Shown piece by piece: positions 4,981 to 48,135 of a DNA stretch of 64,000 nt. The stretch's first letter is position 1. Every line of letters begins with the position of its first letter. The position numbers and the translations under genes are program-made. Source of the stretch: an uncultured Gammaproteobacteria bacterium (lineage in GTDB: Bacteria > Patescibacteriota > Patescibacteriia > UBA11705); assembly GCA_964592195.1 (NCBI GenBank), contig CAZQEI010000007.1, positions 5,082-69,081 on the forward strand, given 5' to 3'. The notes below the pieces were generated by a model. It did no database searches. It had not been told where the DNA came from and worked only from the letters and a program-made list of their open reading frames with translations.

Positions 4981-5140
4981 TAGCGATTAGTAACCGGTAA
5001 CCAGTAACCAGTAACTTGTAATATGTAAATTGTAATAAGTAGCCTGTAACTGGTAACTAGTAAATAGTAATCGTTTCACGTTTTACGTATCACGTATACC
5101 GTATTACGCTTTACGAATATCGATTTACGAATCACGAATA
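4981..5140. repeat. degenerate 9-bp-period tandem array (GTAACCAGT-type then CGTATCACG/TTACGAAT-type units)
   Basis: Visible periodicity in gtaaccggtaaccagtaaccagtaac...cgtttcacgttttacgtatcacg...ttacgaatcacgaat. Confidence 0.7.
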
Positions 5141-5181
5141 ATGAAAAAAGAAAAAACCCTCGCAATGCGGGGGTGTGAAAT

Positions 5182-5583
5182 TTACGCGGCTTTGGGCTGT
5201 TTGGCACTTGAAATGAGAGTGACGAGCTTCCATTTGTTCGGTTCAGGGGTGTGTTGTGGAGGTAGAGGTGGTCGGCGACGTTCAGCTTCTTCTTCTCTCA
5301 TGACTTCAGTCTCAGTCGGACCAAAGGCCGGATGTTGTTCAGTCTGAGTGGTGGCAAGAACAGGAGGAGGTTCAACTTTTTCAACTTTGGTCACCAAGTC
5401 TCTCACAATTTTCAGATTTTTGTTTATCGTTGCATTCAGGTTTGATTTTACAACGTAGAAAATTACCAGAAGAATAATAATCCCAAAAGCATAAAGGAAA
5501 ATGTAAGTCTGATTGGTCTGGACATACTGAAGAAATTTTTCACCATAGATCGGAAGTGTATCAATGAATCCAGTTTCTTCCAT
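5182..5583 (-). CDS. small membrane protein, Pro-rich C-terminus
   Basis: One TM helix and a PPPV/RRRPPLPP tail. No homology recognised. Confidence 0.4.
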   Translation of the reverse strand: MEETGFIDTLPIYGEKFLQYVQTNQTYIFLYAFGIIILLVIFYVVKSNLNATINKNLKIVRDLVTKVEKVEPPPVLATTQTEQHPAFGPTETEVMREEEAERRRPPLPPQHTPEPNKWKLVTLISSAKQPKAA

Positions 5584-5601
5584 GATGTCCCTCCTGGTGT
5601 T

Positions 5602-5853
5602 TTAGGGTCTGCCGTTGTATTGGATGTCGGCAATATGAATGCCAGAGTCGGAATGGAAACCAGGCTTACTGACCCAATTGAGATAGACTTCTTTCGGTGG
5701 TTCTGCTGACTTGGGTGTATCGTGGCAATGACATTTGTCTGATCGGTTATAAATAGAAAGAATGGCATGGCATTGAGGGTGAGAGCAACGACGACCGCTT
5801 GGCATGGTGGCAACTTTTCTTCCGTTTACGATCTCGAATCCATCGGCTACCAT
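5602..5853 (-). CDS. small Cys/His zinc-ribbon-like protein, paralog of 6142-6366
   Basis: Start at MVADGF with an AAAGGAGG RBS. Contains motif CSHPQCH...LSIYNRSDKCHCH. Confidence 0.5.
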   Translation of the reverse strand: MVADGFEIVNGRKVATMPSGRRCSHPQCHAILSIYNRSDKCHCHDTPKSAEPPKEVYLNWVSKPGFHSDSGIHIADIQYNGRP

Positions 5854-6030
5854 GATTCCTCCTTTTTTATCCTCCATAGCTTAAGCGAAGGAGGATTCGG
5901 GCCTTTTGCCCATATTGTGGTTGAAAAGAACTGATTGCTAATTGTATTATACAAATAAAATTGGTTATATTCAAATCTTGAAATAACTTAGAAGTATAGG
6001 ATATTTTGGTAGCTTTGTCAATGATTTGAA

Positions 6031-6120
6031 ATTACGAATGTACGAATTTGTTGCGAATGTTTACGAATTATATCTTTAGTTATTCGCAAGAATTCGTATG
6101 TGATTCGTATATTCGTAATG
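6031..6120. repeat. ~90-bp imperfect palindrome built of TTACGAAT / ATTCGTAA units
   Basis: Four CGAAT units in the first half and four ATTCG units in the second half. Sits upstream of the 6142-6366 gene. Confidence 0.6.
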
Positions 6121-6141
6121 TAAAAATGAGGCTCGTTGGCC

Positions 6142-7550: not shown

Positions 7551-7558
7551 TTAACATT

Positions 7559-7741: not shown

Positions 7742-10585
7742 ATGACAGAAAAGAGAACGAAATTTATCATCATCGACGGGAATGCTTTGGCACATCGAGC
7801 ATGGCACGCTATTCCGCCGTTGAAAACCAAGGATGGACGCATTGTAAATGCGGCGTTTGGGTTTACTTCAATTTTATTGAGAGTATTGAAAGATTTAAAA
7901 CCAGAATATATTGCAGTAACTTTTGATTTGAAAGGTCCGACTTTTCGTCATGAAAAATTTGAAGACTACAAAGCGCAACGGGTGGCACAGGCGGATGAAT
8001 TCTACGAACAATTCCCAATTATAAAAGATATTGTCCGAGCTTTTAATATTCCCATTTACGAAGAACAAGGGTATGAAGCTGATGACGTGATCGGTACTTT
8101 GTGCAAACATCCGCAAGTGGATAAGAAAAATATTTTGTCAGTGATAGTGACTGGAGATAAGGATACCTTGCAATTAATTGATGACAATACTGAAGTATTT
8201 ACTTTGCGTAAAGGCATGAGTGATACAGTGACCTATGATACAAAAGCGGTGATTGAAAAATTCGAAGGGTTAACACCAGCTCAAATGATTGATTACAAAG
8301 CTTTGCGAGGTGATCCGTCTGATAATATTCCCGGTATTAAAGGCATTGGTGAGGTGACGGCGATTCAACTGTTAAATGAATTTGGAACATTGGAAAACCT
8401 TTACGAAGCTTTAGAAAAAAAATCAAAACAAGTCGAAACTATCAAAGAACGTATTCGCGGTTTGATTATTGATCAAAAAGAACAATGCTTGATGAGTAAA
8501 GATTTGGCAACGATTAGAACAAATGTGCCAATGAAATTTGAATTGGAAGATTGCGCGATTAAAAGTTTTAACAAAGATGAAGTCTATCGTTTGTTTTCTA
8601 GTTTGGAATTTCAAAGTTTGTTAGTTCGTTTACCGAGTGAAAGTATGGTGGTGGAGGAAGTGGAAGAGAGGAAGATGGAACAGGGTGGGTTGTTTGCAAG
8701 CGAGATAAGCAAGAATAGCGAGATAAGCGAGGTAATTAAAAAAGCAAAAAATCAAAAAAACAATAAAGCAACGGCAAACGAAATAAAGCAAGTTTACCAC
8801 CTGATTGATAATGAAGAAAAGTTTCAGGGGTTTATTAAAAAATTGGAAAAGCAAAAGATATTTGTTTTTGATACTGAGACAACTGGGTTGAATCCGCGGG
8901 TGGCGGAATTGTTGGGTGTCAGTTTTTCATGGCAGGCGGGGGAAGCCTATTATGTGGCTTTAAACGCAGAGGAGGCGAAGAAAAAAGAGTGGTTATTAAC
9001 CATGAAAAAGATATTTGAAAATGACAAAGTAAAAAAATGCGGGCAGAACATGAAATTTGATGCCATGATGTTGAAGATGAATGGCATTGAAATGGAAAAC
9101 TATTATTTCGACACCATGATTGCTTCCTATTTGTTAAATCCTGGAACCAGACAACATGGTTTAGATCATTTAGCGTTTACCTTATTTCAATATAAAAAAA
9201 TTGCGACCACCGAATTAATTGGCACAGGCAAAAAACAAATTACTATGGCCGAGGTGCCGATTGAAACTGTTTCTAATTATGCTTGTGAAGATGCAGACTT
9301 TACTTGGAGAATCTATGAAGTCTTGGAAAAAGAATTGGAAAAAGAAAATTTGAGAAAATTGTTTAATGAAATCGAAATGCCTTTGGTTCCAGTGCTAATT
9401 GAAATGGAATTTAACGGAGTAAAGATTGACGTTGATCGCATCAAAGAAATAAATCAAAAAGTTTCTCGCACCATTAAATCTTTAGAAAAGAAAATCTTTG
9501 AATTAGCCGGCGAAGAGTTTAATATCAGTTCGCCATTGCAATTGAAAGTTATTTTATTTGATAAATTGTTAATCCCAACTCAAGGATTAAAGAAAACTAA
9601 AACCGGAATTTCAACAGCGGCTCCGGAACTGGAAAAGTTAGCTGGTCAACATGAGATTATTGATTATTTATCTCAATATCGCGAGTTGACCAAGTTGAAA
9701 TCAACTTACTTGGATGCTTTACCAAAATTAATCGATAAAAAAACCGGTCGTGTTCATACCAGTTTCAATCAAACTGTGACTGCGACTGGAAGATTATCTT
9801 CCTCAGATCCAAATTTACAAAATATTCCTATTAGAAATGAGTGGGGCAAGGAAATGCGCAAAGTTTTCGTGGCTGATCATGGCAATCGTTTGATCGCGGC
9901 GGATTACTCACAGGTGGAATTGCGAGTGATTGCCTGTCTGGCCAAAGATGAAGTTATGATGGGCGTGTTTAAACGTGGCGAAGATATTCATCGAGCAACG
10001 GCAGCTAAAATTTTTGGTGTGGAACCAAAAGATGTGACCGATGATATGCGTCGCAAGGCGAAGGAAGTTAACTTCGGCGTTTTATATGGTATGGGCTCCA
10101 GTGGTTTATCCCAACGAACAGGAATTTCCCGCGTTGAAGCTAAAGAATTTATTCAAAAATATTTTGATACTTATAAACGAGTGAGAGAATACACTGAAGA
10201 GATGGTGGAACAAGCACACAAGAACGAAGTGGTAGAAACTTTATTTGGTCGTAAGCGATCGTTGACGGAAATAAACGCTAGTATGCCGATGTTGCGTGCG
10301 GCCGCAGAAAGAATGGCCGTGAACATGCCAATACAAGGCACAGCCGCTGATTTGATGAAAATTGCGATGATTGAAGTTTATAAAGAAGTGAAAAAAGTCA
10401 GTCCGAAAACCAGAATGTTACTTCAGGTTCACGATGAATTGGTGTTTGAAACTCCGTTGGCTGAAGTGGAAAAAGTAGCAAAAATCATTGATGATAAAAT
10501 GGAAAAAATTCATAAACTCGCGGTGCCGATTAAAGTGGAGACTGAGGTGGGGAAGAATTGGGATGAGATGTCTGTGGTGGCGTGA
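7742..10585 (+). CDS. polA: DNA polymerase I (5'-3' exo, 3'-5' exo-like, polymerase domains)
   Basis: 947 aa. Motifs KFIIIDGNALAHRAWHA, ADYSQVELRV, RRKAKEVNFGVLYGMG, VHDELVFE. Confidence 0.95.
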   Translation: MTEKRTKFIIIDGNALAHRAWHAIPPLKTKDGRIVNAAFGFTSILLRVLKDLKPEYIAVTFDLKGPTFRHEKFEDYKAQRVAQADEFYEQFPIIKDIVRAFNIPIYEEQGYEADDVIGTLCKHPQVDKKNILSVIVTGDKDTLQLIDDNTEVFTLRKGMSDTVTYDTKAVIEKFEGLTPAQMIDYKALRGDPSDNIPGIKGIGEVTAIQLLNEFGTLENLYEALEKKSKQVETIKERIRGLIIDQKEQCLMSKDLATIRTNVPMKFELEDCAIKSFNKDEVYRLFSSLEFQSLLVRLPSESMVVEEVEERKMEQGGLFASEISKNSEISEVIKKAKNQKNNKATANEIKQVYHLIDNEEKFQGFIKKLEKQKIFVFDTETTGLNPRVAELLGVSFSWQAGEAYYVALNAEEAKKKEWLLTMKKIFENDKVKKCGQNMKFDAMMLKMNGIEMENYYFDTMIASYLLNPGTRQHGLDHLAFTLFQYKKIATTELIGTGKKQITMAEVPIETVSNYACEDADFTWRIYEVLEKELEKENLRKLFNEIEMPLVPVLIEMEFNGVKIDVDRIKEINQKVSRTIKSLEKKIFELAGEEFNISSPLQLKVILFDKLLIPTQGLKKTKTGISTAAPELEKLAGQHEIIDYLSQYRELTKLKSTYLDALPKLIDKKTGRVHTSFNQTVTATGRLSSSDPNLQNIPIRNEWGKEMRKVFVADHGNRLIAADYSQVELRVIACLAKDEVMMGVFKRGEDIHRATAAKIFGVEPKDVTDDMRRKAKEVNFGVLYGMGSSGLSQRTGISRVEAKEFIQKYFDTYKRVREYTEEMVEQAHKNEVVETLFGRKRSLTEINASMPMLRAAAERMAVNMPIQGTAADLMKIAMIEVYKEVKKVSPKTRMLLQVHDELVFETPLAEVEKVAKIIDDKMEKIHKLAVPIKVETEVGKNWDEMSVVA

Positions 10586-10677
10586 GGAAGAAGTAACCGG
10601 TAACCCGTAATCGGTAACCAGTAAAAAGAAATTTGTTCTCGATAACTATAATCAAAAATCTAAAATCTTTAATCTTT

Positions 10678-11877
10678 GTGTCCACGCACGAAACAATTAA
10701 TCTCACCGGCACTGTTACTCCTGAAAATCAAGGGAGTTTAGTTGACGTTAACGAGGAATTGCATAAAACGAGTGAAGCGATTAAACAACAAGGGAGGACA
10801 CCGGAAAATGTGTTGAGGGCTTTAGCCTTGGTAACTAAAATGGGCGATATTGTTAAGCAAGAAAAACAGGAAATTAAAAAAATACATGTAGATTTTAGCA
10901 AGTTTGAAGAATTGGAAAGAATTGAAAATATAAGAGAGGGTGTTTCCAATATTAATTTTTTAGCGCCTGATAGTTTAATCTTTTCTCTAAAACATCTAAC
11001 TGATGATAAAGAGTTGTTGTATTCAATGAAATTGGATGATTCTCAGACGGTCGCACGTATGCTGAATCCTTCAGGTGGGGCGTTATCTGTCAGCCCCGGG
11101 TTGGATTTTATGGACGCTAGCCAATCTGAATTTTTGGTTTATGGTGGTTCTGATGGTTTGCGAGTTTTGGATTGTAGAAAAAAGGGTGAAGAAAATCTTG
11201 TCTATCTGCCACTGAATGGGATTGCATGTAAGTTTGCCATTTCTTTGGATGATGAAGAAGTTATAACTAATGATGAAGATGGCTTCCAGATTATCCATGG
11301 AGTCCATCCTTTTGTATCAAGAAAGTCGGTGCGTTCAAAAGATTTGATTACTGATTCAATTGGTAGAATTGAGTGTGGGGTTAAGTTAAAGAATGGCAAA
11401 ATAGCGTTTGGAACGGCAGAGGGTGGGTTAGTGGTGTATGATATTGGAAATAATAGTATGTTGAGGGTGCGGGTTGATAATATATTACCGAAATATTCAT
11501 TAATCAGTTTAGCGGAATATGATGATAATAAAGTCCGGGGTGTCTATTTGAGAGTGGGCACAACTACTGCCAAATTTGTAAATTTTGACACAGAAACTGG
11601 TGAGGCGATTCCTTGTGGAGATGCGTCGTTTACCGCCTCGACAATGATGCCATTAGAAAATGGTTTAATTGCTTTTGCTTCCGGTTATAACATATCAATT
11701 GTAAATGGAGAAACCAACAAGTTAGTAACACTTTTAAAGGGTAAAAAAAATGGTAGAAGTACTGGTAAAATTGATCAAAGAATAACTGGTATGACTCGTT
11801 TGCCTGATGGACGAATAGTAGTATGTCGTGAAGATGGAAATATTGTTTTTTATGGTGATCCAGATGTTAGCGAGTAG
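10678..11877 (+). CDS. paralog family member 1: conserved N-terminal about 45 aa and C-terminal RLPDGRIV..DG..FYGDPDV, variable repeat-rich core (beta-propeller-like by inference)
   Basis: GTG start gives MSTHETINLTGTVTPENQGSLVDVNEELHKTSEAIK. Repeated xNGxIAFGTxxGxLVVYD blade-like units. Confidence 0.6.
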   Translation: MSTHETINLTGTVTPENQGSLVDVNEELHKTSEAIKQQGRTPENVLRALALVTKMGDIVKQEKQEIKKIHVDFSKFEELERIENIREGVSNINFLAPDSLIFSLKHLTDDKELLYSMKLDDSQTVARMLNPSGGALSVSPGLDFMDASQSEFLVYGGSDGLRVLDCRKKGEENLVYLPLNGIACKFAISLDDEEVITNDEDGFQIIHGVHPFVSRKSVRSKDLITDSIGRIECGVKLKNGKIAFGTAEGGLVVYDIGNNSMLRVRVDNILPKYSLISLAEYDDNKVRGVYLRVGTTTAKFVNFDTETGEAIPCGDASFTASTMMPLENGLIAFASGYNISIVNGETNKLVTLLKGKKNGRSTGKIDQRITGMTRLPDGRIVVCREDGNIVFYGDPDVSE

Positions 11878-12027
11878 GTGCGAGGGATGAGGTATGAGGG
11901 ATGAGCTATGAGCGGTTAGCGTTAAGCGGTAAGCGGTTAGGGATTGGAATTAAGAATTAAGAATAAAAATATAATTGAATTCGTATCACGTTTAACGTAT
12001 CACGCTTTACGAATTACGAATAACGAA
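11878..12027. repeat. degenerate 9-bp tandem array (GAGCGGTTA / GAATTAAGA / CGTATCACG / TTACGAAT units) abutting the next start codon
   Basis: gatgagctatgagcggttagcg...gaattaagaattaagaa...cgtatcacgctttacgaattacgaataacgaa then ATG. Confidence 0.7.
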
Positions 12028-13236
12028 ATGTCATTTAACGAAACAATTAATCTCACCGGCACTGTTGCTCCTGAAAATAAAGGGAGCTTAGTTGACGTCA
12101 ATGAAAAACTGCATGAAACGAGCGAGGCGATTAAAAGACAAGGACCAACGTCGGGAAATGTGTTGCGAGCTTTGGCGTTGGTGGAGGAAATGAGTGGACT
12201 TGTTCGTGAAAATAGTTTTGGTAATTTTGAGCATAAAGATTTTGCCAAGTTCGAAGAGTTGGATCGGGTGGAATTGAGAATGACATGTTTGGAACAAGTT
12301 GATTTTTTACCTCCGCATTATGTTGTCGTCTCCGGCGTGAGTCAAGCCGTGCATGTTCTTGATTTAACCAAAATGGAAGATAGATCTTCTATCGAAGATA
12401 TTTTAGTCACGAAAAATACAAAAAGAGGAGATTTGAGTGAATTAGTCGCTGACGAGAGGGGTAAATTTGATGCTTTGATAAAACTGAATAGTAAGGCAAT
12501 CGTATATTTACAAGATTATACTTGGTATCGCAAAGAAAAATTCAGTCATAATAATAGATATCCCACTCCTTTGCGACCACGATTCATGCTAAATCTCGAA
12601 AATGGAAAGATGTTGACTAATGATACCGACGGATATCAAGTGTTGGATTTTTCAAGCGGCATTAGGGAAACATCAATGCGTTCAGGTTTCAATATACCCG
12701 ATCAAGAACTCGGACAGCTGACATGCGGGATTAGAATGAAAAATGGACGAGTGGCTCTGGGAAATGAATCTGGTGAATTAATGATTGTTGATCCCCATGA
12801 TAAGCAAGCTTTGAAATGGCGCAGTCGAATTACAGATGATACGGATCGTTATTCGGTACAAAACATTGTTGAATATGATGATAATAAATTATTACTTATA
12901 ATTAACGAAAAGAATAAACCGAATAGTGATAATTTGGTTTTGTCTATTGATTTTAATGCCTCTGCTCCTGATTTTGTTCATAAATTTCAATATCGAAATA
13001 CTGTAATGTTGGGCTTGGGAGGTGGTAAAATTGTTTTTCCTACAGGCTGGACATTGAATTTCGAAGATGCGGATAAGTCTTTGATTATTAATGTAATTTC
13101 TAATAAAAAAGATTTTGTGAACGATGGACCTAGTAATGAACATATTGTTTCCATGATGCGTTTGCCTGATGGCAGAATCGTGGCGGGAAGAATTGACGGG
13201 ACGGTGGTGTTTTATGGGGAAGCGAGAGAAGAATAA
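12028..13236 (+). CDS. paralog family member 2
   Basis: MSFNETINLTGTVAPENKGSLVDVNEKLHETSEAIK ... RLPDGRIVAGRIDGTVVFYGE. Confidence 0.6.
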   Translation: MSFNETINLTGTVAPENKGSLVDVNEKLHETSEAIKRQGPTSGNVLRALALVEEMSGLVRENSFGNFEHKDFAKFEELDRVELRMTCLEQVDFLPPHYVVVSGVSQAVHVLDLTKMEDRSSIEDILVTKNTKRGDLSELVADERGKFDALIKLNSKAIVYLQDYTWYRKEKFSHNNRYPTPLRPRFMLNLENGKMLTNDTDGYQVLDFSSGIRETSMRSGFNIPDQELGQLTCGIRMKNGRVALGNESGELMIVDPHDKQALKWRSRITDDTDRYSVQNIVEYDDNKLLLIINEKNKPNSDNLVLSIDFNASAPDFVHKFQYRNTVMLGLGGGKIVFPTGWTLNFEDADKSLIINVISNKKDFVNDGPSNEHIVSMMRLPDGRIVAGRIDGTVVFYGEAREE

Positions 13237-13466
13237 AGAATTAGGAAGTAAGGGATGAGCTATGAGCGGTTAGCGGTAAGCGGTAAGTGATTAGGGATTG
13301 GAATTAAGAATTAAGAAGTAAGGGATAAGGAATGAGCGATTAGCGATTGGCGGCAAGCGATTAGGAGTTAGAATTAAGAATTAAGAATTAAGAATAAAAA
13401 ATCTAATTGAATTCGTATTACGTTTAACGTTTAACGTATCACGCTTTACGAATTACGAATAACGAA
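13237..13466. repeat. degenerate 9-bp tandem array, same unit families
   Basis: gagcggttagcggtaagcg...gaattaagaa...cgtttaacgtatcacgctttacgaattacgaataacgaa then ATG. Confidence 0.7.
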
Positions 13467-14678
13467 ATGTCATTTAACGAAACAATTAATCTCACTGGCA
13501 CTGTTGCTCCTGATAAACAAGGGAGCATAGTTGACGTCAATGAAAAATTGCACGAAACGAGTGAGGCGATAAAAAAACATGGCCGAACGCCGGAAAATAT
13601 TCGGCGAGCTTTGGATTTAGTTCAAGAAATGTCTAGATTAATTCCGAGAGAGATAAATTTCAGAGAATTTAAACACAAAAACATTAAAAATTTTAAAGAA
13701 TTGGATCGGTTACACGATGTTGGTGTTGGTTTGTGCTCGGTGAACTATTTATCACCTGACAAACTAGTGGTGTCTTACGCCCAAGAAGCAAAACCGAAGG
13801 TTATTGATCTTAGTAAAATTGTAAACAGAGATTTTGAACAAGATGTTTTTGTTGAAGATATAAAAACTGATAAAAGAGTTAATATTGCAACTCGAGAATC
13901 GAATAAACAAGATTATTGGTGTGAGTTGAATGAAAATGATTTTGCTTATATAAACAAAGGAAGAATAACTTTTTGCGTTGATGGCGTTTCTAGGCAAATA
14001 TCTTATCCAAGAGGACATAAATTTTGTTTACCACTTGAAGACCATTTTGTATTGACAGACTCTGATTCAGGTTTTTTGGTGGTTGATTATAAAAATCCTG
14101 AGTACCCTATTGTTAAACGATCGGGTGAAATGATGCCTGATTTAACACTTGGAAAATTACACTCAGCAATTAAATTACAAAATGGTAATTTCGTTTTTGG
14201 TACTGATAACAATGAAATTGCGGTTGTAGATTTTAATAATCAAAATGCACCATTGGTTTGGCACGACGAAATGCCAGGTGGATTTGAATCAGATGTGATA
14301 AAAATTGTTGAATATGCTCCAAATAGATTATATGTCATTTCCAGGAGAAGAACTGGAGGAAATGATTTGATGCTGATTGCTGTTGATATTAATACGTATT
14401 CTATGAGATTGAAGGAATCTAGATTCCCCTCGCAGTATATGCTTCCGTTAGGTGATGGTTTTGTTTGTTACGCAGACGGTTACAGACTTTTTATAAAAGA
14501 CTTAAATACAAACAAAGATGGCAAAGTTATTTATGGAGAATTTGGGGAGCCTAGCGCAGGACCAAAAGAAAGCCAAATTACAGATTTGATTCGATTACCT
14601 GATGGGCGACTCGTGGTTAGTAGATTAGATGGGAAGGTAATATTTTATGGTGATCCCGATGTTGATAATGAGGTGTGA
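13467..14678 (+). CDS. paralog family member 3
   Basis: MSFNETINLTGTVAPDKQGSIVDVNEKLHETSEAIK ... RLPDGRLVVSRLDGKVIFYGDPDV. Confidence 0.6.
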   Translation: MSFNETINLTGTVAPDKQGSIVDVNEKLHETSEAIKKHGRTPENIRRALDLVQEMSRLIPREINFREFKHKNIKNFKELDRLHDVGVGLCSVNYLSPDKLVVSYAQEAKPKVIDLSKIVNRDFEQDVFVEDIKTDKRVNIATRESNKQDYWCELNENDFAYINKGRITFCVDGVSRQISYPRGHKFCLPLEDHFVLTDSDSGFLVVDYKNPEYPIVKRSGEMMPDLTLGKLHSAIKLQNGNFVFGTDNNEIAVVDFNNQNAPLVWHDEMPGGFESDVIKIVEYAPNRLYVISRRRTGGNDLMLIAVDINTYSMRLKESRFPSQYMLPLGDGFVCYADGYRLFIKDLNTNKDGKVIYGEFGEPSAGPKESQITDLIRLPDGRLVVSRLDGKVIFYGDPDVDNEV

Positions 14679-14679
14679 G

Positions 14680-14835
14680 GAAATAGTATTAAGAAGTAAG
14701 AAGTAAGGGATAAGGAGAAGGAGAAGGAGAAGGAGAAAGTAATAAGTAACCAGTAACCTGTAACCGGTAACCAGTAACCAGAAAAGGTACTCTGTAAGTA
14801 TAATCTCGTATTACGCTTTACGAATTACGAATACC
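14680..14835. repeat. degenerate tandem array (AAGGAGAAGGAG, GTAACCAGT, TTACGAAT units)
   Basis: aaggagaaggagaaggagaagg...gtaaccagtaacctgtaaccggtaaccagtaacc...cgctttacgaattacgaataccgag. Confidence 0.65.
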
Positions 14836-14902
14836 GAGTTCCCAATTGACATTAATCATGAATTAATTTAACATAACTAAGCTCTTCAAAAGGGGGGAAC
14901 AT

Positions 14903-15538: not shown

Positions 15539-15830
15539 GTATTACCGATATACTGATTGATTACCGATTTTACAGATATTACGGATGTATTACTGATAAA
15601 GATTTATGAATTTACTACGGATAATATAAGAAAACACATTTTAAGAGATTGCTTCGTCGTCTAACTCCTCGCAAAATAGTAACCTATTCTGTCCCGAAGG
15701 GATCCCTTTGGGACGAGCCCCGAGATAATCGAGGGGCGTGGCAGTCTCAAAATCATTTTGCTATTTGTTACATGTTCTATGCTACATGTTACATGTTTTT
15801 GCTAATTTTATACAAAATGCTATGCTTTAA

Positions 15831-19786: not shown

Positions 19787-19854
19787 ACATTGATCAAGGA
19801 GCATTGACCCAGCTGCTCGCGAGCGGCTGGGTTGATCATTATGAAGAAGGAAAA

Positions 19855-20556: not shown

Positions 20557-20655
20557 CGAATCCGCTACGTATCTACGAATCGGAAAAGTATTATTTACAC
20601 ATAGGAGTTTTAATATTCGTAGTTTCGTAGCCAATATGTCATTCGTAGCAAAAAT

Positions 20656-31991: not shown

Positions 31992-31999
31992 GAAATGAG

Positions 32000-32162: not shown

Positions 32163-32236
32163 TACCCCGCGATGCGGGGCAGGCGATTCACGAAAAGACA
32201 GCGCTAACGCTGTTTTTATTATAAATAAGCCATTTG

Positions 32237-34083: not shown

Positions 34084-34412
34084 TTTACTACGGATGCTAC
34101 TGATTGGAAAATTTAGTCATTATGAGCTACGGATACTACGCCCTGTCATCCGACAGGGCAGTCATGTCGAATGACATGACGGATACGCAAATGACAAGGG
34201 AAGTATTTATTTGACCACACCTTTCGCAGCGTCCCGCCTCAGGTGGAAGTTGGGGAGGGAGTTTTATCTAACTATCTATTTCACCACGCCTTCAGGCGGG
34301 GAGGAAAGCTTTGTTCCCTCCGTAAACGGAGGGTGAATAATTGTCTATTTCACCACGACTTTTTTATAATCCGTCTTTGGCGGAAGGCGGGGAGGAAGAC
34401 TTTATTCCCTCC

Positions 34413-36864: not shown

Positions 36865-36887
36865 ATATAGTCATTGACCATTGATCA

Positions 36888-36933
36888 TTTCCGCCGAAGG
36901 TCGGATCAGCCTCCGGCTGAGAACATTGATCAA
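36888..36933. repeat. 46-bp element, copy 1 of an inverted pair (partner at 55606-55651, 1 mismatch)
   Basis: tttccgccgaaggtcggatcagcctccggctgagaacattgatcaa. The reverse complement matches 55606-55651 at 45 of 46 positions. Confidence 0.7.
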
Positions 36934-37029
36934 CGATAAACAAAGTATGACACTTTTTAATTAATTAATCAAGTTTTTATGTAAAATTAAGCAAAATTAC
37001 AGATAAGTGTAACTCTTTCCCATCTGGCT

Positions 37030-37268
37030 CGTCCTATATAATGTAGGGTGTAGTGCAAATATGAAATACCCATTTTGCACTATCCTTCAAGATAAATTTA
37101 TGAAACGTTGTCAACAACAACCTAACCGTTCTATCGAAACCATGGTGACATTGGTCTCTGGTTTTGCTTATGATACGAATCAGGTCGGTTGTGGTTGGCG
37201 TATAGCGTCTGCATAAGGCGTAATACAATCAATAGGTGTACCCATCCGGCTTGGTAAGGCCGGTTTTT
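37030..37268 (+). ncRNA. candidate structured leader or small RNA ending in an intrinsic terminator, upstream of the MFS transporter (class not identified)
   Basis: No credible ORF. Hairpins include TAGTGCAAAtatgaaatacccaTTTTGCACTA. Ends with CCGGCTTGGTAAGGCCGG followed by T7. Confidence 0.25.
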
Positions 37269-37273
37269 TTGAC

Positions 37274-37366
37274 ATTACGAATTTTCGAATCTGTTACGAA
37301 TGTGTTCGAATAATCTCATTGCTAATCATTCGTAAAAATTCGAAATTAATTCGTATATTCGTAATG
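37274..37366. repeat. ~90-bp TTACGAAT/ATTCGTAA imperfect palindrome
   Basis: First half ttacgaattttcgaatctgttacgaatgtgttcgaat. Second half cattcgtaaaaattcgaaattaattcgtatattcgtaatg. Confidence 0.6.
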
Positions 37367-37415
37367 CTCTTTACAACTGAACGGTCAACCACCAACTCCT
37401 TGAAAGGGGGGAATC

Positions 37416-38612: not shown

Positions 38613-38753
38613 AAAAGAACAGCTCAAACGGGCTGTTTTTTTAATTTATTAATTGTGCTATAATTAAAATATAAAAATAAATGTATTGAATGGAGGGTTT
38701 TTGAATTTTGATCTTATGGTCAATGTTCATTGATCAATGTTCAATGAAAAAGT

Positions 38754-39521
38754 ATGGACAAAAATGTTTCGCGTTGGGATGTCTCCACGCGCTTGTTTGT
38801 TCTCTTGGTGATCTTGGCCGTGTTTGTAGTCGGCGCCTTTATTTCAACTGTGGTGAAGGTGGTGATTGACTTCTACAACATGCCAGGCAATTATCCACGA
38901 GAAATTTCTGTGTCTGCAGATGGCAAAGTTTATGCCAAGCCAGACATTGCGAAGATTAACATTGGAACCACATCCGAAGGTTTAGATATCAAAGTGGTGG
39001 TGGATGACAATGCCAAGAAGATGAATGCGATTACCGCGAAGTTGAAGACTTTGGGTGTTGAAGATCGTGATATTCAAACGATTTCTTACAACTTGTATCC
39101 TAATTATGATTGGCCAAACAATGTAAAAACATTGACCAATTACACTTTGGACAATCAGATTGAAGTAAAAGTTCGTGATTTTACCAAGGTGAGTGAAGTG
39201 ATTGCGCAGGCTACCACCTTAGGAGCAAATAATATCAATAATGTTCAATTTACTTTTGAAAATTTTGATAAAGTGAAAGAAGCGGCTCGGGCCAAGGCGA
39301 TTGAAAATGCCAAGGCCAAAGCTGTGTCTTTGACTAAACAAAGTGGTTTGAAATTGGGTAAGTTAGTAAATGTCTGGGACAATGATCAATCTGGTGTTTA
39401 CTATGATTACAAGGCTAGTCCAGCTGGTATGGGTGCTGGTGGTTTAATGGAATCACCTACAGTTGAATCTGGAGAACAGGAAATCGTAGTGAATGTTTCG
39501 TTGACTTATAAGTTGAAATAG
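38754..39521 (+). CDS. SIMPL-domain (DUF541, YggE-like) protein with N-terminal TM anchor
   Basis: DNAKKMNAITAKLKTLGVEDRDIQTISYNLYPNYDW matches the SIMPL family. Confidence 0.7.
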   Translation: MDKNVSRWDVSTRLFVLLVILAVFVVGAFISTVVKVVIDFYNMPGNYPREISVSADGKVYAKPDIAKINIGTTSEGLDIKVVVDDNAKKMNAITAKLKTLGVEDRDIQTISYNLYPNYDWPNNVKTLTNYTLDNQIEVKVRDFTKVSEVIAQATTLGANNINNVQFTFENFDKVKEAARAKAIENAKAKAVSLTKQSGLKLGKLVNVWDNDQSGVYYDYKASPAGMGAGGLMESPTVESGEQEIVVNVSLTYKLK

Positions 39522-39592: not shown

Positions 39593-40897
39593 CTACTTAA
39601 CTACGGATATTTTTCCAGTTACCATTCCCATCCAGCAACTGAATGAATAAGTTCCAGTTTTTGTGGCCGTAAATTCTTTAACAATAGTTTTTCCGCGTTG
39701 AAGGGCTAAAGTTTCGCTGAATAAACTCTTTGCCACCAAGCGATTAGTGCAACCGCTGGTGCCAGTGTCAGTAATTTCCCAACGAACTGGAATGCCGGCT
39801 TTGACTGTGAATGAATTGGGAGAATAACCGCTGGCGGATGCATCCATATAGATAGTTTGAGTATTTTGATTTGTTAACGTGGAATCAATAGTCGGTTGAT
39901 TATTACTAAAGACGGTTTGCGGAAATATTAAGTTAATTTGATTACGAAGATTGAATAATGCAAAGATTATAATTAATAAACCAGCCGCCAAGGTTAAAGT
40001 TTTTTGATATTTATTCGGTTGCCAGAGTTTTGTTGAAAAATAGCCAATGATTAACAATGGAATGGTGGATCCTAAAGCAAAACTGGCCATGATTAACCCG
40101 CTGTGTAATGGTGAAGCGGCGATTAAACTGGCGCCCTGAGCAGTCAAAGCAAAACCACAAGGTAAGAAGAATGTGGCGACGCCGATTAGAACTGGATGGT
40201 CTATTTTATGTTTGAATTTTTCAAACAAGTTACCGCCATGAAATAGCTTTTTGATTTTTACACCGGCTAAACGTAAACCGATAATTAACATCCAAATTGA
40301 AATAATAATAATTAACCATGGGAAAAATGATTGACTTAAAGTTAAGTTTTTTCCTATCAATCCCAGAATAGTACCAAGAAGAAAGAATCCTCCAATTCTA
40401 CCAAAGTTAAATTGCAAATGTGGCCAAATAGGGGATTTGTCGTTTTTCCATTGTTGTCCCAGTGAAATTACAATACCGCCAATGAGTGCCGCGCAAGTTG
40501 ACACACCGGCGATCAAACCAAGTCCGGCGAATAAACCGAGCGAAGTTGAGCCTTCAATGTTAAAGTATTTATCCAATTGTAGTTTACTGATAAGAAAATA
40601 TATAACAAATACTCCAATCAGCAAACCAAAAGCCAACCACCAGTTGATTCTGTTATTTTGAGTGGTGGAAAATCTATATGGCGAATCTTTGAACAGGCGA
40701 TTGAGATCGTTTTCTGAAAGTTCTTTGTCTTTAAATAAAATTTCCACACGGTCGGGGTTGTGTTTGACTTCCGCTTTTTTGACCACCTCGTGGTCGTTCA
40801 AAGTTTCGGCAATAATTTTACTGCATGCTGGGCAGTGCATTCCGGATATAAAGTATGATTTGGTCATTTTTTTCATGGAGCATGGAACATTGAACAT
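39593..40897 (-). CDS. membrane protein: N-terminal heavy-metal-associated (HMA, CxxC) domain, polytopic TM core, C-terminal cupredoxin-like beta domain
   Basis: GMHCPACSKIIAETL, about 8 TM helices, C-terminal ...FSCWMGM.... Confidence 0.5.
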   Translation of the reverse strand: MFNVPCSMKKMTKSYFISGMHCPACSKIIAETLNDHEVVKKAEVKHNPDRVEILFKDKELSENDLNRLFKDSPYRFSTTQNNRINWWLAFGLLIGVFVIYFLISKLQLDKYFNIEGSTSLGLFAGLGLIAGVSTCAALIGGIVISLGQQWKNDKSPIWPHLQFNFGRIGGFFLLGTILGLIGKNLTLSQSFFPWLIIIISIWMLIIGLRLAGVKIKKLFHGGNLFEKFKHKIDHPVLIGVATFFLPCGFALTAQGASLIAASPLHSGLIMASFALGSTIPLLIIGYFSTKLWQPNKYQKTLTLAAGLLIIIFALFNLRNQINLIFPQTVFSNNQPTIDSTLTNQNTQTIYMDASASGYSPNSFTVKAGIPVRWEITDTGTSGCTNRLVAKSLFSETLALQRGKTIVKEFTATKTGTYSFSCWMGMVTGKISVVK

Positions 40898-41203
40898 GGA
40901 GCAACGAAATGTGCTGTGTTACATGTTATGTGTTACGTGCTGCGTGCTATGTGTTACATGATGTCATTTGTTAGCAAACTTGGAAACAGTGAGGATTTTA
41001 CTGATCATCGATTAATGAGTCTTGATCAATGAAAGACCCATACACTAGGTATAGGTTAAGTTTATCGCAAATGTCAATTATATCAAATTATGGAAGTTTG
41101 TTGAGGTGTTGATAACTTTGGTAAATAGCTTTGTTTGAATCATGTATTTAGGGTATAATAATAAGGTAATGAAATTAACAGTTTGACTAATTAACTGGAT
41201 CAT

Positions 41204-45002: not shown

Positions 45003-45066
45003 GATAATAAATCGCTACGAATGACATATTTGCTACGAAACTACGAATAATATTTCCAATACGTAG

Positions 45067-46845
45067 ATTTGTAGCCGATTCGTTATTAGTAGTAAATATC
45101 TGCTTACAGAGAATAAACAAAAAACAGGTTACAGTCTCGTCGAAGCGTTGCTTGCCATCGCTTTGTTTGCGTTAATTGCATCTGGATTAGCGGGTAGTTT
45201 GATTTATGGATATTTCTCAACCTCATTGGCTGGCACTAGAGAACGAGCGGCTTTCATTGGGGAAGAAGGTTTAGATGCTAGTCATAATATTCGGGATGCG
45301 GCTTATACAAACTTGGTAAATGGAACTACTGGGGTGTCCGTGGCTAGCAATGTTTGGACTTTTTCTGGAGCTTCGGATACTACCAATGGAATTACTCGCG
45401 CAATAACAATTGCGGACGCTGGTTCCAATCGTAAGCAATTAACTGAAGCGGTGACTTGGACGCAAATGACAGGTCGCGCCGGTAGTTTTAATTTGGTGAC
45501 ATATTTAACTAATTGGAGAAGAGTGGGTGTGGCTTTGTATAATGCATTATTAATATATGGTGATGGTACAACCAGTCCGAAATATAGAACCTATAATAAT
45601 ACTACTAACGTTTTTAGTACAGAAACAACCACTGTTACAAATGCGGTCTCTCCGACATTTATAATGAGAACCTCTCCAACAAAATCAGAAGCAATCGCTG
45701 CTTTTTATAATTCTTCCGGAGATATGTATGTCATGTGTTTTGATGGTACAACATGGACCGATGAGTGGAATGTAAGTGTTGGCGGTACTGGTGCTGGGAG
45801 AAGAGTCGATGTAGCTTATGAAACAGCGTCAGGCGATGTAATGGTCTTATATAGTACTAATACCGCGACAACAAACGAGTTAAACTATCGGACTAAGGCA
45901 GGAAGCGCAGGCTGCGGCACTGTGAATTGGTCGGCCGCTCAAAATCTTAACCCTGTTAGAACTGCGAATATCATTAATTATATCCGTTTGGCTTGGGATC
46001 GTCGCGCCGGACAAAATTTAATTGCTGCAACCTGGGTGGATATCAGTGATGACTTGTCGAGCGCCATTTGGACAGGATCAGCCTGGACGAATGAACCAGC
46101 GACAGTTTCAGATACCAATGTTGAAAGGGTGTCAGTTGGGCATGATCTAGAAAATATGGATATTGAATATGAGTCATTGTCTGGAGATGTCATGATGGTT
46201 TGGGGTACCACCGTTGGTAATAATGCGAATGGTGTCCGATATCGAACTTGTAATGGCGGCACATCATCTTGCACTTGGAGCGCTGTGACGACTCCCCCAA
46301 CATTTAATGATGACGCTACCAACCTTGATTTATCTGCGAATCCAAATACCGACCAAATGGTTTTTGCCTCTATTGGAGAGAATCAGCGCGATTTACAAAT
46401 AGGCTATTGGAGTGGGACTACTTGGACGAATACAGCAAACGTAGATACTTCATGCAATACTCCTTTTGCTGGTTCCAAGTTGGTTTCGACGGGATGGTTG
46501 ATAAATGGTGCCACGACAAGGTCGGTAGTCCTTTATGAAGATCAGAATTCGAACAGCCTTAATTGGTATGTTGGAAATGTTGGTGTTTTTACTGTTCAGG
46601 GGGACTTCGTTGTTTTTCCTGCTCCTGTCAATCCAAATGGTTATTATGATATTCAAATGAATCCGCTTAGCAAAGATCAGCTGATGTTTTGTTTCTCAGA
46701 TAATAATAATGATTTATTCTGTAAACGTTTAGCTATGTCAGCCGTGCCGGCTTTTACATGGACAAATTCCGATGGTGCTGTTTTAGAAACAACTTTACCT
46801 CAAAAGATAACTAGCCCATTTGCGTTTGCGTATTGGAGACAATGA
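45067..46845 (+). CDS. large pilin-like protein with prepilin N-terminus (start codon uncertain)
   Basis: KQKTG|YSLVEALLAIALFALIASG prepilin motif at 45118-45190. No ATG/GTG/TTG upstream in frame back to the stop at 45064. Thr/Ser/Asn-rich body. Confidence 0.55.
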   Translation: MCSRFVISSKYLLTENKQKTGYSLVEALLAIALFALIASGLAGSLIYGYFSTSLAGTRERAAFIGEEGLDASHNIRDAAYTNLVNGTTGVSVASNVWTFSGASDTTNGITRAITIADAGSNRKQLTEAVTWTQMTGRAGSFNLVTYLTNWRRVGVALYNALLIYGDGTTSPKYRTYNNTTNVFSTETTTVTNAVSPTFIMRTSPTKSEAIAAFYNSSGDMYVMCFDGTTWTDEWNVSVGGTGAGRRVDVAYETASGDVMVLYSTNTATTNELNYRTKAGSAGCGTVNWSAAQNLNPVRTANIINYIRLAWDRRAGQNLIAATWVDISDDLSSAIWTGSAWTNEPATVSDTNVERVSVGHDLENMDIEYESLSGDVMMVWGTTVGNNANGVRYRTCNGGTSSCTWSAVTTPPTFNDDATNLDLSANPNTDQMVFASIGENQRDLQIGYWSGTTWTNTANVDTSCNTPFAGSKLVSTGWLINGATTRSVVLYEDQNSNSLNWYVGNVGVFTVQGDFVVFPAPVNPNGYYDIQMNPLSKDQLMFCFSDNNNDLFCKRLAMSAVPAFTWTNSDGAVLETTLPQKITSPFAFAYWRQ

Positions 46846-46970
46846 TTTCATTGAACATCGATCAAGGATCATTGATCATTGAACGTGAAGCAGCAAAGAA
46901 TAATTTAAAATTTTTCTAATCGTTGCACGTTTAACGCTTAACGAATTACGCTTTACGAATATCGAAAAAA

Positions 46971-47504
46971 ATGGCAAATATTATCACAACCAAATTTCAA
47001 ACAAACAAACGAGGTTTTACTCTCGTGGAATTTGTGATTTATGTTGGCATTGTGGCTCTGATGATAACCAGTTTAAGTTCATTTTTAATCATGGCAGTAT
47101 CGGCAAGAACTAAAGCAGAAGCAGTGGCGAATGTGGAAGAGCAGGGTATTGCGGCCATGCAAAGAATTACACAAACGATAAGAAACGCAACTAGTATTAC
47201 CGCTCCTAGTATTGGCACCAGTAGTGCAACTGGAGCGACCGTGGTTGTCCCAACCGGTGCGTTAAGTCCGACTTTGTTTAATTTATCATCAGGTGTTCTT
47301 CAAATGAAAGAAGGGGCTGGCGCGTATGTTGATTTAACTTCCAGTCAAGTAGTCGTTTCAGGTTTAACTTTTTATAATGTATCGAGACCGAGTACTTCTG
47401 GATCAATGAAAATACAATTTACAGTTTCAACACCAGCTACAAGTGTCGCTCCGCATTTTACCTATTCAAAAACTTTTAATGGAACCGCTACTTTAAGACC
47501 ATAA
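46971..47504 (+). CDS. minor pilin (prepilin-type N-terminus)
   Basis: KRG|FTLVEFVIYVGIVALMITS. Confidence 0.7.
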   Translation: MANIITTKFQTNKRGFTLVEFVIYVGIVALMITSLSSFLIMAVSARTKAEAVANVEEQGIAAMQRITQTIRNATSITAPSIGTSSATGATVVVPTGALSPTLFNLSSGVLQMKEGAGAYVDLTSSQVVVSGLTFYNVSRPSTSGSMKIQFTVSTPATSVAPHFTYSKTFNGTATLRP

Positions 47505-47508
47505 TAAA

Positions 47509-47910
47509 ATGAAGAAATTGATTCACAACAAAACCGGATTTGCCTTGATTGTTATGGTTTTGGTTATGGGAGCGGTGGCTCTGACTGTGGTGACAGTAGT
47601 TTTTGCCTTGGGAATTGGCTCCACTATGACTAGTACCGAGTTCGTGGCTTCTCATCAAGCCAAGGCTTTGGCAAACGCTTGTGCTGAGGAAGCTTTGGAG
47701 CAAGTCCGAGCGAGTACGGCCTACACTGGTACTGGAAGTCTAAGTTTGAGTACTGGCAGTTGTTCCTATACGGTTAGCAATACTGGTGGAGAAACGCGAT
47801 CTATTACTACTAACGCTACGGTTAGAAATATGACTCGTCGGGTGGCGATCACGGTGACTGCGATTAATCCATATATTACTATTTCTTCATGGCAGGAAGT
47901 GGCGAATTAG
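47509..47910 (+). CDS. minor pilin, PilX-like
   Basis: KTG|FALIVMVLVMGAVALTVV. No Glu at +5. Confidence 0.6.
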   Translation: MKKLIHNKTGFALIVMVLVMGAVALTVVTVVFALGIGSTMTSTEFVASHQAKALANACAEEALEQVRASTAYTGTGSLSLSTGSCSYTVSNTGGETRSITTNATVRNMTRRVAITVTAINPYITISSWQEVAN

Positions 47911-48135
47911 ATTTGAGCGATTAGCGGTTGGCGAAGAGCGATTAGGGATATGAATTATGAATTAAGGGAATAGGAACCGGTAACCCGTAACCAGTAACTA
48001 GTAATCAGTAATCGGTAACCCGTAACCAGTAATAAGTAATACGTAATATGCAACTAAAATCTATAATCTTTTAACGTTTATCGTATCACGAATAACGCTT
48101 TACGAATTACGAATATCGTTTAACGAATAACGAAC
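47911..48135. repeat. degenerate 9-bp tandem array (GAGCGATTA, GTAACCAGT, CGTATCACG/TTACGAAT units) ending at the sensor kinase start
   Basis: ttgagcgattagcggttggcg...gtaacccgtaaccagtaactagtaatcag...cgtatcacgaataacgctttacgaattacgaatatcg. Confidence 0.7.

Follow-up and report, generated by a model that had tools for sequence, protein, structure and literature searches.

Degenerate heptanucleotide tracts fill intergenic spacers in a Patescibacteria chromosome segment

The stretch of DNA analysed here, referred to below as the window, comprises 64,000 nt of contig CAZQEI010000007.1 and is an ordinary chromosome segment. It encodes DNA polymerase I (PolA), isoleucyl-tRNA synthetase (IleRS), phosphoribosyl pyrophosphate (PRPP) synthetase, two deoxynucleoside kinases (dNK), Ham1, a NUDIX protein, a histidine kinase, pilin-like proteins and tRNAs, and many of the spacers between these genes are occupied by degenerate tandem repeats, the subject of this report. 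Among species representatives, the nearest PolA proteins belong to Candidatus Falkowbacteria, Buchananbacteria and Parcubacteria (49–56% identity); in a larger protein database the next relatives show 77% and then ~66% identity, the latter including Falkowbacteria RIFOXYC2_FULL_36_12. Judged from these sequence comparisons, the host is a genome of the Patescibacteria, or candidate phyla radiation (CPR), near Falkowbacteria and without a sequenced close sibling. A cyanobacterial origin, our first guess from GC content and the heptamers, was overturned by the phylogenetic neighbours of PolA.

An initial annotation had described degenerate tandem arrays with a 9-bp period filling many of these spacers. 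Arrays are present at essentially all of the positions it listed, far above shuffled sequence, but their unit is a heptamer. An intergenic set of 11.1 kb was derived from a crude map of open reading frames (ORFs) in the window (56 ORFs, 82% coding), and base identity at each lag was compared with that in 200 dinucleotide-preserving shuffles, an autocorrelation that the annotation itself had proposed. The periodicity exceeds the shuffles at lag 7 (z = 16.2) and at lags 14, 21 and 28 (z = 8.5, 7.7 and 7.5) rather than at lag 9, which remains at background (z = 0.9); coding DNA shows the triplet signal only. Lag 7 is the best lag in 26 of the 26 intervals listed for five of the annotated unit families, with an identity of 0.50–0.79, and Tandem Repeats Finder reports periods of 7 or multiples of it (14, 21, 28, 35, 70, 77) for nearly all listed arrays. 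The 9-mers read earlier join one heptamer to 2 nt of the unit that follows, e.g., GTAACCAGT = GTAACCA+GT. A CRISPR (clustered regularly interspaced short palindromic repeats) array was ruled out, since the units are 7 nt long and contiguous as opposed to 24–48-nt repeats with unique spacers, and G-quadruplex and coding-repeat readings were ruled out on anatomy.

A sliding detector recovered 21 period-7 tracts (19–21 by count) with a total length of 2112 bp, compared with 86–441 bp for each of the periods 5, 6 and 8–11. Most of this sequence (1733 of 2112 bp) lies outside ORFs of at least 100 aa. Tracts were found in 17 of the 43 intergenic gaps, where they account for 17.8% of the gap DNA; nine gaps consist of tract by at least half, and four by 94–100% (10586-10677, 11878-12027, 13237-13466 and 47911-48149). 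The genes flanking the tracts show no functional bias. As the initial annotation had noted, arrays often abut start codons; several tracts do, namely at 12028, 13467, 46971, 48150, 38754, 27534 and 1567 (Table 1).

The long tracts in 7-nt register are continuous lattices of 15–35 units, in which the unit changes gradually and neighbours differ by one or two bases, for example through GAGGGAT, GAGCTAT, GAGCGGT, TAGCGGT, AAGCGGT, TAGGGAT, TGGAATT and AAGAATT and eventually to CGTATCA, CGCTTTA and CGAATTA. The Hamming distance between units of one tract is 2.5 for neighbours and ~4.8 for units at least eight units apart. Core words keep a single phase within a tract, as illustrated by 4974-5162, where all 11 GTAA and all 7 ACG cores (11/11 and 7/7) are in phase. 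Nine composite tracts share a common plus-strand order: the upstream stop codon is followed by purine-rich AGCGGT/GGGAT/AAGAATT and/or GTAACC units, a TATAAT-like box, often aCTATAATCt, a block of ACG-type units and the start codon. The ACG-type block comprises 7–10 units with the consensus ACG-N-W-T-Y (ACGnWTY). Eight such blocks align colinearly, with their unit variants in conserved order and gaps mostly of 7 nt, and the phase offsets are identical between GTAA and ACG in three of four loci and between AGCG and GGGA in four of four. Furthermore, for 61% of the units an identical copy exists in another tract, compared with ~8% by chance.

Table 1. Heptanucleotide tracts and CTACGRAT-word elements of the window
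Coordinates	Strand	Units	Position and remarks
1499-1587	+	two short tracts, TTTAGAA-like then CATGATC/AATGTTC	reach into start codon of gene 1567
3323-3369	+	ATGATCA/ATGATTC	between gene 2737-3204 and tRNA-Cys (3520)
4974-5162	+	composite: 11 GTAAC-type units, TAGTAAT, ~10 CGTWTMA/CGAATWA units	between two minus-strand genes; end overlaps terminator-like hairpin of gene 5182-5583(-)
10582-10677	+	GTAACC units, CTATAATC, AAAATCT units	polA stop to paralogue 1 (probable GTG 10678); 100% tract
11868-12036	+	composite: GAGGGAT/GAGCGGT/AAGCGGT, TAGGGAT, AAGAATT, ATATAAT, CGTATCA/CGCTTTA/CGAATTA	whole spacer, to ATG 12028
13229-13475	+	longest composite (~35 units)	ends at ATG 13467; paralogous to 11868-12036
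14669-14854	+	composite: TAAGAAG/GGAGAA, GTAACC x6, GTATAATCT, CGTATTA/CGCTTTA/CGAATTA
15754-15801	+	TTACATG/CTACATG	upstream of gene 15902
19756-19811	+	CATTGAT/CATTGAA (TTGAnC-containing)	upstream of dNK gene 19945
27502-27561	+	CTTCATG/TTCCATG/TTACATG	IleRS stop to gene 27534, overlapping 27534 start codon
31984-32170	+	composite: 10 GTAAYMN units, TTGTAGT, CGTTTAA...CGAATTA units	before NUDIX gene 32264
38711-38755	+	ATGGTCA/ATGTTCA/TTGATCA	ends at start codon of gene 38754
40866-40964		CATGGAR and TGTGTTA/CATGTTA tracts	divergent spacer; CATGGAR tract overlaps start of gene 39593-40897(-), in the gene's sense orientation (TTCCATG)
46845-46968	+	TGATCAT/TGAACAT, TTCTAATCG, ACG-type (CGTTTAA, CGCTTAA, CGAATTA, CGCTTTA, CGAATAT)	ends 2 nt before ATG 46971 (pilin-like gene)
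47914-48138	+	32-unit composite: AGCGA/AGCGG, TAGGGA, TATGAAT, GTAAC x10, CTATAATCT, ACG-type x9	94% of spacer; stops 11 nt short of ATG 48150 (histidine kinase)
53632-53684		T-rich heptamers	start of pilin-like gene 53173-53646(-)
53747-53874	+	composite: AGGGTT/AGGGAT, AGCGNTT, ACTATAATCTATAAT, ACG-type	between two minus-strand genes
54839-54876	+	TGATCAA/TGATCCT	divergent spacer
20545-20652		CTACGAAT words	between two dNK genes; 108-nt imperfect hairpin (z = -3.9)
45003-45105		CTACGAA(A)CTACGAAT ... ATACGTAGATTTGTAGC	right after stop codon; hairpin (z = -4.8)
3237-3290	+	direct CTACGGAT/CTACGAAT/CTACAGAT words	8-11 nt spacing
2575-2640, 15541-15640, 34085-34140		similar loose clusters of direct CTACGRAT words

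Three tandem paralogous genes at 10678-11877, 12028-13236 and 13467-14678 (33–35% identity) have no Pfam domain and share the N-terminus MSFNETINLTGTV. Paralogues 2 and 3 are 100% identical in the 60 nt adjoining the ATG and in the first codons, which suggests gene conversion. Upstream of this identical segment, the spacer before paralogue 3 (13229-13475) contains, relative to that before paralogue 2 (11868-12036), one additional ACGTTTA unit, one TAAGAAT(+A) unit and a block of ~70 nt (10 units). The starts at 10633 and 11944 proposed by the ORF finder fall within tracts and are probably wrong; GTG 10678 and ATG 12028 are likelier. Unit number also varies at orthologous sites elsewhere: eleven metagenomic loci of a Fervidibacter-like lineage share the anchor GAGGTGACCAAAAATGACGCC and carry 4, 11, 13 or 14 ACG units upstream of it, always in 7-nt register. 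Thus the copy-number comparison of orthologous spacers, also proposed in the initial annotation, gives a variation of 4–14 units in this lineage rather than in that of the window. Together with the 7- and ~70-nt whole-unit indels between paralogous spacers and the decay of unit similarity with distance, it bears out the earlier idea of slippage-prone, spacer-generating repeats. In a Fervidibacter-like polysaccharide-biosynthesis cluster (L188, L171 and related loci), nearly all spacers are heptamer tracts (AGCGAGT/GGCGAGT, GGGACAG, TTACGCN), with inverted AGCGA/TCGCT pairs and a unit number that varies from strain to strain.

The tracts are strongly oriented. Three GTAA cores at 7-nt spacing occur 28 times on the plus and one time on the minus strand, and AGCG cores 5 times and never, respectively; apparent reverse-oriented ACG tracts proved on inspection to be forward CGT-type units. 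The plus strand of the tracts is 58% purine with a GC skew of +0.22, compared with 52% and +0.10 for the other non-coding DNA. Since the whole window has a positive GC skew and mostly plus-strand genes, the directions of replication and transcription are confounded here. The ATGATCA/ATGTTCA/TTGATCA and YTYCATG families on or beside start codons take the orientation of their gene on either strand (1567+, 27534+, 38754+, 40897- and 36864-), and in L188, the contig of the Fervidibacter-like cluster, the stop-proximal AGCGA family flips with the gene strand. Heptamers that contain ATG (ATGTTCA, TTCCATG, TCAATGN) overlap the start codons at 1567, 27534 and 38754 on the plus strand and at 40897 on the minus strand, and thereby lend unrelated proteins a common predicted N-terminus, MF(N/H)V; three such units supply all reading frames with an ATG, since 7 mod 3 = 1.

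The folding of tract RNAs resembles that of their shuffles, with a mean z of -0.23 on the plus and -0.98 on the minus strand, whereas 33 other intergenic segments have a mean z of -2.48. Selection for less structure than chance within the tracts was rejected, as z ~-0.2 equals the shuffles and only the other spacers are more structured. At gathering thresholds, an Rfam search over the whole window returned tRNAs only. Among the genes right behind ACG blocks, those at 12028, 13467 and 46971 have no Shine-Dalgarno (SD) sequence and that at 48150 has a weak one, whereas strong SDs occur elsewhere in the genome. Sense-oriented, start-proximal and SD-poor placement applies at these four sites; the exceptions are 4974-5162, 53747-53874, 14669-14854 and 31984-32170. 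A promoter-like site TTGACA-N17-TAACAT lies at 14846-14874, downstream of the 14669-14854 tract and before Ham1, and a similar site recognized by eye, TTGACA-N17-TAACAT(G), lies at ~32236, downstream of the 31984-32170 tract and before the NUDIX gene 32264.

Among 84 control loci anchored on PolA, taken from many phyla and not selected for the pattern, period 7 is ~3-fold commoner than periods 4, 5, 8, 10 and 11. The period-7 density of the window is ~8-fold above the mean of these loci, and the ten densest of them are all CPR relatives. The units differ from one CPR relative to another: TTTTGAA, TAAATTC and TAGAATC were found in L001, ACTAGGA/ATTAGGA/ACTGGGA right after the polA stop codon in L082, and GTCAAAA, CGACAGA, AAAATCT, TAAGAAT and AGTAATT in others, several loci being arranged as inverted pairs. 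Heptamer tracts are absent or almost absent from L081 and from L084-86, a three-strain Falkowbacteria set, and the orthologous spacers of tract-free relatives are simply shorter. At the site orthologous to 10582-10677, a 120-bp ACTAGGA array is present in L082 and a CTACGAATA array in L081. The latter genome, the closest relative (77% PolA identity), has a true period-9 array of CTACGAATA/CTACTAATA after polA that runs into CAGGAGTGTGGTTATG, the like of which does not occur in the window, as well as a period-8 TTACGAAT array. At L081 5100-5398, after polA, there is a 106-bp unit, duplicated in tandem at least 2.1 times, that combines a leader made of a CTACGAAT array with an SD, an ATG and ~14 initial codons. 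In L082, at 12894-13447, a gene for a PF05635 protein (23S rRNA intervening-sequence protein) lies between a 120-bp (ACTAGGA/ATTAGGA/ACTGGGA)n array and an inverted (TCCTAGT)n array; the two could pair into a long stem that encloses the gene.

A metagenome scan with the ACG-type pattern ACGCTTTACGAATWWCGA yielded 108 single hits, approximately the number expected by chance; of these, only the 49 that lie within period-7 tracts, on contigs of 32–68% GC, carry information. The contigs with ACGnWTY tracts that could be placed belong to a Fervidibacter-like member of the Armatimonadota, Flavobacterium, Candidatus Acidoferrales, Thermodesulfobacteriota and Desulfobacteraceae. By these placements, ACGnWTY tracts recur in at least five phyla: Patescibacteria, Armatimonadota, Bacteroidota, Acidobacteriota and Desulfobacterota/Thermodesulfobacteriota. 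Among 35 distinct loci outside the window, 12 have a sense-oriented start codon at most 15 nt from the tract end and 4 have one at the corresponding distance on the mirrored side; in L125, the tract abuts the start codon of elongation factor G (EF-G). Other families precede the ACG units at several of these loci, namely AGCGA and then GGGAC in the Fervidibacter-like lineage, GTAAT in L173 and L146, and AGARTTA in L125, and inverted (AATTCGT)n ... (ACGAATT)n arrangements are seen at many. The lineage specificity proposed in the initial annotation thus holds for most unit sequences and fails for the phenomenon itself and for the ACGnWTY unit type, both of which are present in several phyla.

The sixth family of the initial annotation (CTACGGAT/CTACGAAT; CTACGRAT) could not be sustained as a tandem array, its six intervals having weak best lags of 8–12. 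It consists of dispersed words, direct and inverted and partly hairpin-forming, at a spacing of 8–11 nt, which sit directly after stop codons and differ in kind from the heptamer tracts. The hairpins at 20545-20652, 45003-45105, 37268-37368 and 51405-51505 have z values from -3.9 to -4.8, and the other copies of the CTACGAAT family are direct only. Dyad clusters of TTACGAAT/TTCGAAT ... ATTCGAA/ATTCGTAA with ~10–11-nt spacing were found at 6030-6117, 37270-37365, 51408-51500 and 54615-54708. They fold as ~100-nt hairpins (z ~-4), two of them directly upstream of the response-regulator gene 51506 and the TrmB-like regulator gene 54614-, and they are candidate operator arrays or repetitive extragenic palindromic (REP)-like elements. 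Any likeness to REP elements and bacterial interspersed mosaic elements (BIMEs) is limited to the sixth family and these clusters, i.e., to dispersed, gene-end-proximal imperfect hairpins with GTAG/CTAC; the heptamer tracts differ in being unstructured direct repeats. The word TACGAAT occurs 48 times in the window against 10.2 ± 3.4 expected (4.7-fold); its copies are on both strands and largely non-coding. Both the word and its placement near start codons are conserved between the window and L081; the period is not.

Several further elements were noted in the window. A GC-rich element of ~45 nt, CTCAGCCGGAGGCTGATCCGnCCTTCGGCGGAAATGA, flanked by TGATCAATGTTC, is conserved at 36865-36940 (minus strand) and 55598-55670 (plus strand), upstream of genes for an RlmN-like radical-SAM protein and a cytidylyltransferase/AAA protein, and had no Rfam match in an E-value search (best E = 0.47); it may be a cis-regulatory RNA. 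Small GC-rich hairpins (GGCGGGGAGGAA...CCCTCCGTAAACGGAGGG, CCCCGTTTACGGGG, CCACCTGAAGGTGG) recur in AT-rich spacers at 34200-34420, ~23680, 24590, 23740 and 28990. A 500-nt ORF-free region at 23288-23793 contains a long hairpin, CTTCTTCG...CTACGAAGGACAAGAAGGCTACGAAGG, and matches no Rfam family; it may represent an unannotated RNA gene. At 51924-53646 on the minus strand, a TGGTATAATAT extended -10-like box stands before each of three tandem pilin-like genes, which encode 157 aa each with the N_methyl motif.

The claim that these arrays do not belong to a described repeat class has to be given up, since intergenic heptanucleotide simple sequence repeats (SSRs) have been described (PMC4679880; PMC4692102; bioRxiv 10.1101/2022.06.06.494920). 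Among long SSRs with 5–11-nt units, heptamers are the most abundant in many bacteria, and a bias of polymerase slippage has been proposed (Mrazek, Guo and Shah 2007, as represented in PMC4679880 and PMC4692102). As far as these later papers represent that survey, its repeats are likewise 7-nt, tandem, mostly intergenic and phylogenetically patchy, with a proposed slippage origin; the window differs in its CPR host, which lies outside the survey, and in its highly degenerate multi-family composites as opposed to near-perfect SSRs. The window tracts have a 7-nt head-to-tail unit, are longer than chance, are mainly non-coding and differ in length by whole units, the features by which repeats of Mrazek's type are recognized. 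They are thus heptanucleotide SSRs of the known intergenic kind, i.e., of the short tandemly repeated repetitive (STRR) or Mrazek's long-SSR kind, and are new in their host phylum and unit families. Their less-appreciated properties are possibly the ordered composite lattices copied between loci and the cross-phylum, start-proximal ACGnWTY family. In the literature searched, we found no paper that ties CPR/Patescibacteria to such repeats or mentions these exact arrays.

STRR heptamers of Calothrix and Nostoc were reportedly described by Mazel et al. in 1990. We take the ATGGTCA/TTGATCA units of the window to resemble STRR2 (TTGGTCA). Cyanobacterial genomes with STRR heptamers (PMC4692102, PMC5088731) likewise contain several heptamer families, each at many intergenic loci, and the Nostoc core GGGGAYT resembles TAGGGAT/GAGGGAT of the window. 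Membership in the STRRs sensu stricto was nevertheless rejected, as the host is, by its PolA, not a heterocystous cyanobacterium and the units differ from STRR1-3. The TAACTGA repeats of Beggiatoaceae, Cyanobacteria and Bacteroidetes are mostly forward, end ~1 nt (0–11 nt) before start codons where an SD is rare, are mixed with other heptamers, and have been proposed to be read by S1, Csp or CsrA (MacGregor 2015, PMC4679880). The window tracts share with them the forward start-proximal placement, the usual absence of an SD, the admixture of related heptamers and the cross-phylum spread; relatives without repeats at the same site occur in both, and copies between two stop codons in Microcystis share one chromosomal orientation. 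They differ in the unit, which is ACGnWTY (TTACGAA, CGTATCA, CGCTTTA) beside GTAACCN, AGCGGTN and others, and in size, as TAACTGA repeats mostly have 2–6 units, whereas 7–10 units stand in composites of 25–35 units in the window, where stop-proximal families are also present. Heterogeneous (GGGANTN)n intergenic tracts, GGGAATC in Xanthomonas and GGGGAYT in Nostoc, differ at a given site from one related species to another, both in length and in sequence (Rehm et al. 2015, PMC4692102). The window shares GGGAT-type units with these G-rich heptamers, but as one composite segment only, and their small number (2–3 per tract) makes G-quadruplexes unlikely.

Intergenic heptamer repeats, known since 1990 and surveyed since 2007, are to our knowledge still mechanistically unexplained, and the only heptamer SSR that we know to have been dissected mechanistically is that of the hmw genes of Haemophilus influenzae. 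There, the (ATCTTTC)n repeat is transcribed within the 5′ untranslated region, and the unit number tunes expression through a long hairpin whose G-rich arm is cleaved by RNase III (PMC12721329). The likeness to the window tracts is that of a heptamer SSR between promoter and start codon; the differences are the hairpin, which the window tracts lack (mean z = -0.23), and their distribution over many loci versus one virulence locus. In Nostoc, TTTTGAA and GACYAAT repeats affect recF/recO expression via an unknown partner (bioRxiv 10.1101/2022.06.06.494920), and in the ctx promoter of Vibrio cholerae, heptad repeats are reported to be regulator sites (bioRxiv 10.1101/2021.05.14.444153).

The most plausible interpretation, which we regard as likely, is that the tracts are heptanucleotide SSRs of the STRR or long-SSR kind in a CPR chromosome, which gain or lose entire units or blocks of them. 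They would arise and change length by unequal recombination or by in-register slipped-strand mispairing, under the general bacterial bias to 7-nt units, an origin that is well supported. Whole composite blocks would in addition be copied or homogenized between loci, as the unit order is colinear at eight loci beside unrelated genes. The tracts lie mostly between co-oriented genes and would probably form part of transcripts, as intercistronic or leader RNA without structure, and they may have a regulatory role. The start-proximal ACGnWTY block could be a leader or provide a platform on which translation is initiated, or it could, as proposed for TAACTGA, be bound by a single-strand-binding protein whose footprint is ~7 nt, in which case changes in unit number would tune expression; we advance this functional proposal tentatively, with the balance of probability somewhat against it.

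Several observations weigh against this combined interpretation. The composites 4974-5162 and 53747-53874 keep the plus orientation between minus-strand genes, which speaks against a purely gene-linked orientation in the window genome; the orientation rule may differ between lineages, or these two may be dead or ectopic copies. A generic sigma-70 promoter scan of the window found 45 sites versus 34 ± 6 in shuffles, i.e., no excess, and cannot place promoters inside the tracts. The promoter-like sites at 14846 and ~32236 lie downstream of the tracts, so that the ACG blocks there would fall outside the mRNA leader. Many ACG tracts outside the window precede a normal SD and are thus not simple replacements of it. 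As the outside loci were picked by an ACG-type pattern, the recurrence claimed concerns unit type and position and not conserved order. Finally, the next PolA is only 77% identical, and for the loci of the window itself, copy-number polymorphism is deduced only from paralogues and from another phylum.

A purely neutral or selfish by-product is somewhat unlikely in our estimate. In that case the tracts would be slippage junk in unconstrained spacers, and their position and orientation would mirror where unstructured, non-coding, non-toxic sequence is tolerated. Their patchy presence, with units that differ among close relatives (L001, L082, L083, L035) and none or almost none in L081 and L084-86, agrees with it, as do the lack of functional bias among flanking genes, the lack of structure and the merely shorter orthologous spacers of tract-free relatives. 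However, it leaves unexplained why the same unit families stand in the same order at 8–9 loci, why ACGnWTY occurs in at least five phyla, even in genomes of 60–68% GC where an AT-rich unit is compositionally unfavoured, with a start bias of 12 versus 4, and why TACGAAT is 4.7-fold enriched and kept in the 77% relative despite another spacing. The enrichment of TACGAAT (48 copies versus 10.2 ± 3.4), mostly non-coding and on both strands, and its retention in L081 at another period would be accommodated if a transcription factor or nucleoid-associated protein bound DNA specifically at this word, in arrays of sites; the heptamers, the 8–9-nt CTACGAAT arrays and the 10–11-nt dyads would then be one putative operator in three arrangements. 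The dyad clusters with roughly helical spacing upstream of the TrmB-like regulator and response-regulator genes fit such operators, and the V. cholerae ctx heptads mentioned above are a reported precedent. Nevertheless, we judge this improbable: it covers the ACG family only and not the GTAACC, AGCGGT, AAGAATT and TGATCAA tracts on the same lattice, a 7-bp spacing sets successive sites on different faces of the helix, and strict single-strand orientation is unexpected for an operator in double-stranded DNA.

Colinear composites beside unrelated genes, two of them facing no gene, with a conserved aCTATAATCt box and frequently ending in ATG, might also point to a non-autonomous mobile cassette with promoter and leader that inserts at gene boundaries, akin to miniature inverted-repeat transposable elements (MITEs) or REPs. 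This is more improbable still, as neither terminal inverted repeats nor target-site duplications can be seen, block borders fade into other heptamer families, and tracts differ in length by indels of whole units and not by an element being present or absent. No transposase was detected among the ~30 window proteins scanned, and the Pfam scan of these ~30 of the ~56 window ORFs turned up no REP-associated tyrosine (Y1) transposase (RAYT). An undescribed class of 9-bp-period repeats, as first proposed, is hardly tenable: the CTACGAAT family alone shows 8–9-nt spacing, loosely in the window, and a true period of 9 was found only in L081, whereas lag 9 is at background next to lag 7, all 26 intervals favour 7, and the class is already described. 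We give equally little credence to an assembly or synthetic artefact or to hidden structured RNAs or terminators. The contig is metagenome-assembled, and repeat lengths can be mis-assembled; yet degenerate units allow unique assembly, and dozens of independent assemblies, which come from several phyla, show the same phenomenon, while a folding z of ~-0.2 and the lack of Rfam hits in the tracts argue against RNAs or terminators.

For a streamlined, ultra-small CPR genome, it is surprising that ~18% of the scarce intergenic DNA is heptamer tract and that some spacers form one 7-nt lattice from stop to start codon. The tracts would represent ordered composites copied between loci rather than isolated microsatellites. 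They mislead gene callers, as ORF 11944 and several MF(N/H)V N-termini begin inside tracts, and they are likely hotspots for assembly breaks and strain variation. The presence of ACGnWTY beside start codons, including that of EF-G, in several phyla and even in GC-rich genomes provides a searchable motif toward a binding partner. In the most far-reaching reading, a conjecture to which we assign a low probability, the ACGnWTY tract, or more broadly the ordered composite, would be a conserved cis-element across at least six phyla, read by a widely conserved factor that binds single-stranded nucleic acid with a 7-nt footprint (cold-shock-domain or S1-like) or by the ribosome. Such an element would organize both the spacing between cistrons and an initiation of translation that either dispenses with the SD or assists it; the number of units would be an expression dial, inherited yet quick to mutate. 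If this were true, the ~35-year puzzle of the bacterial preference for 7-nt units would receive a functional, and not only a mutational, answer.

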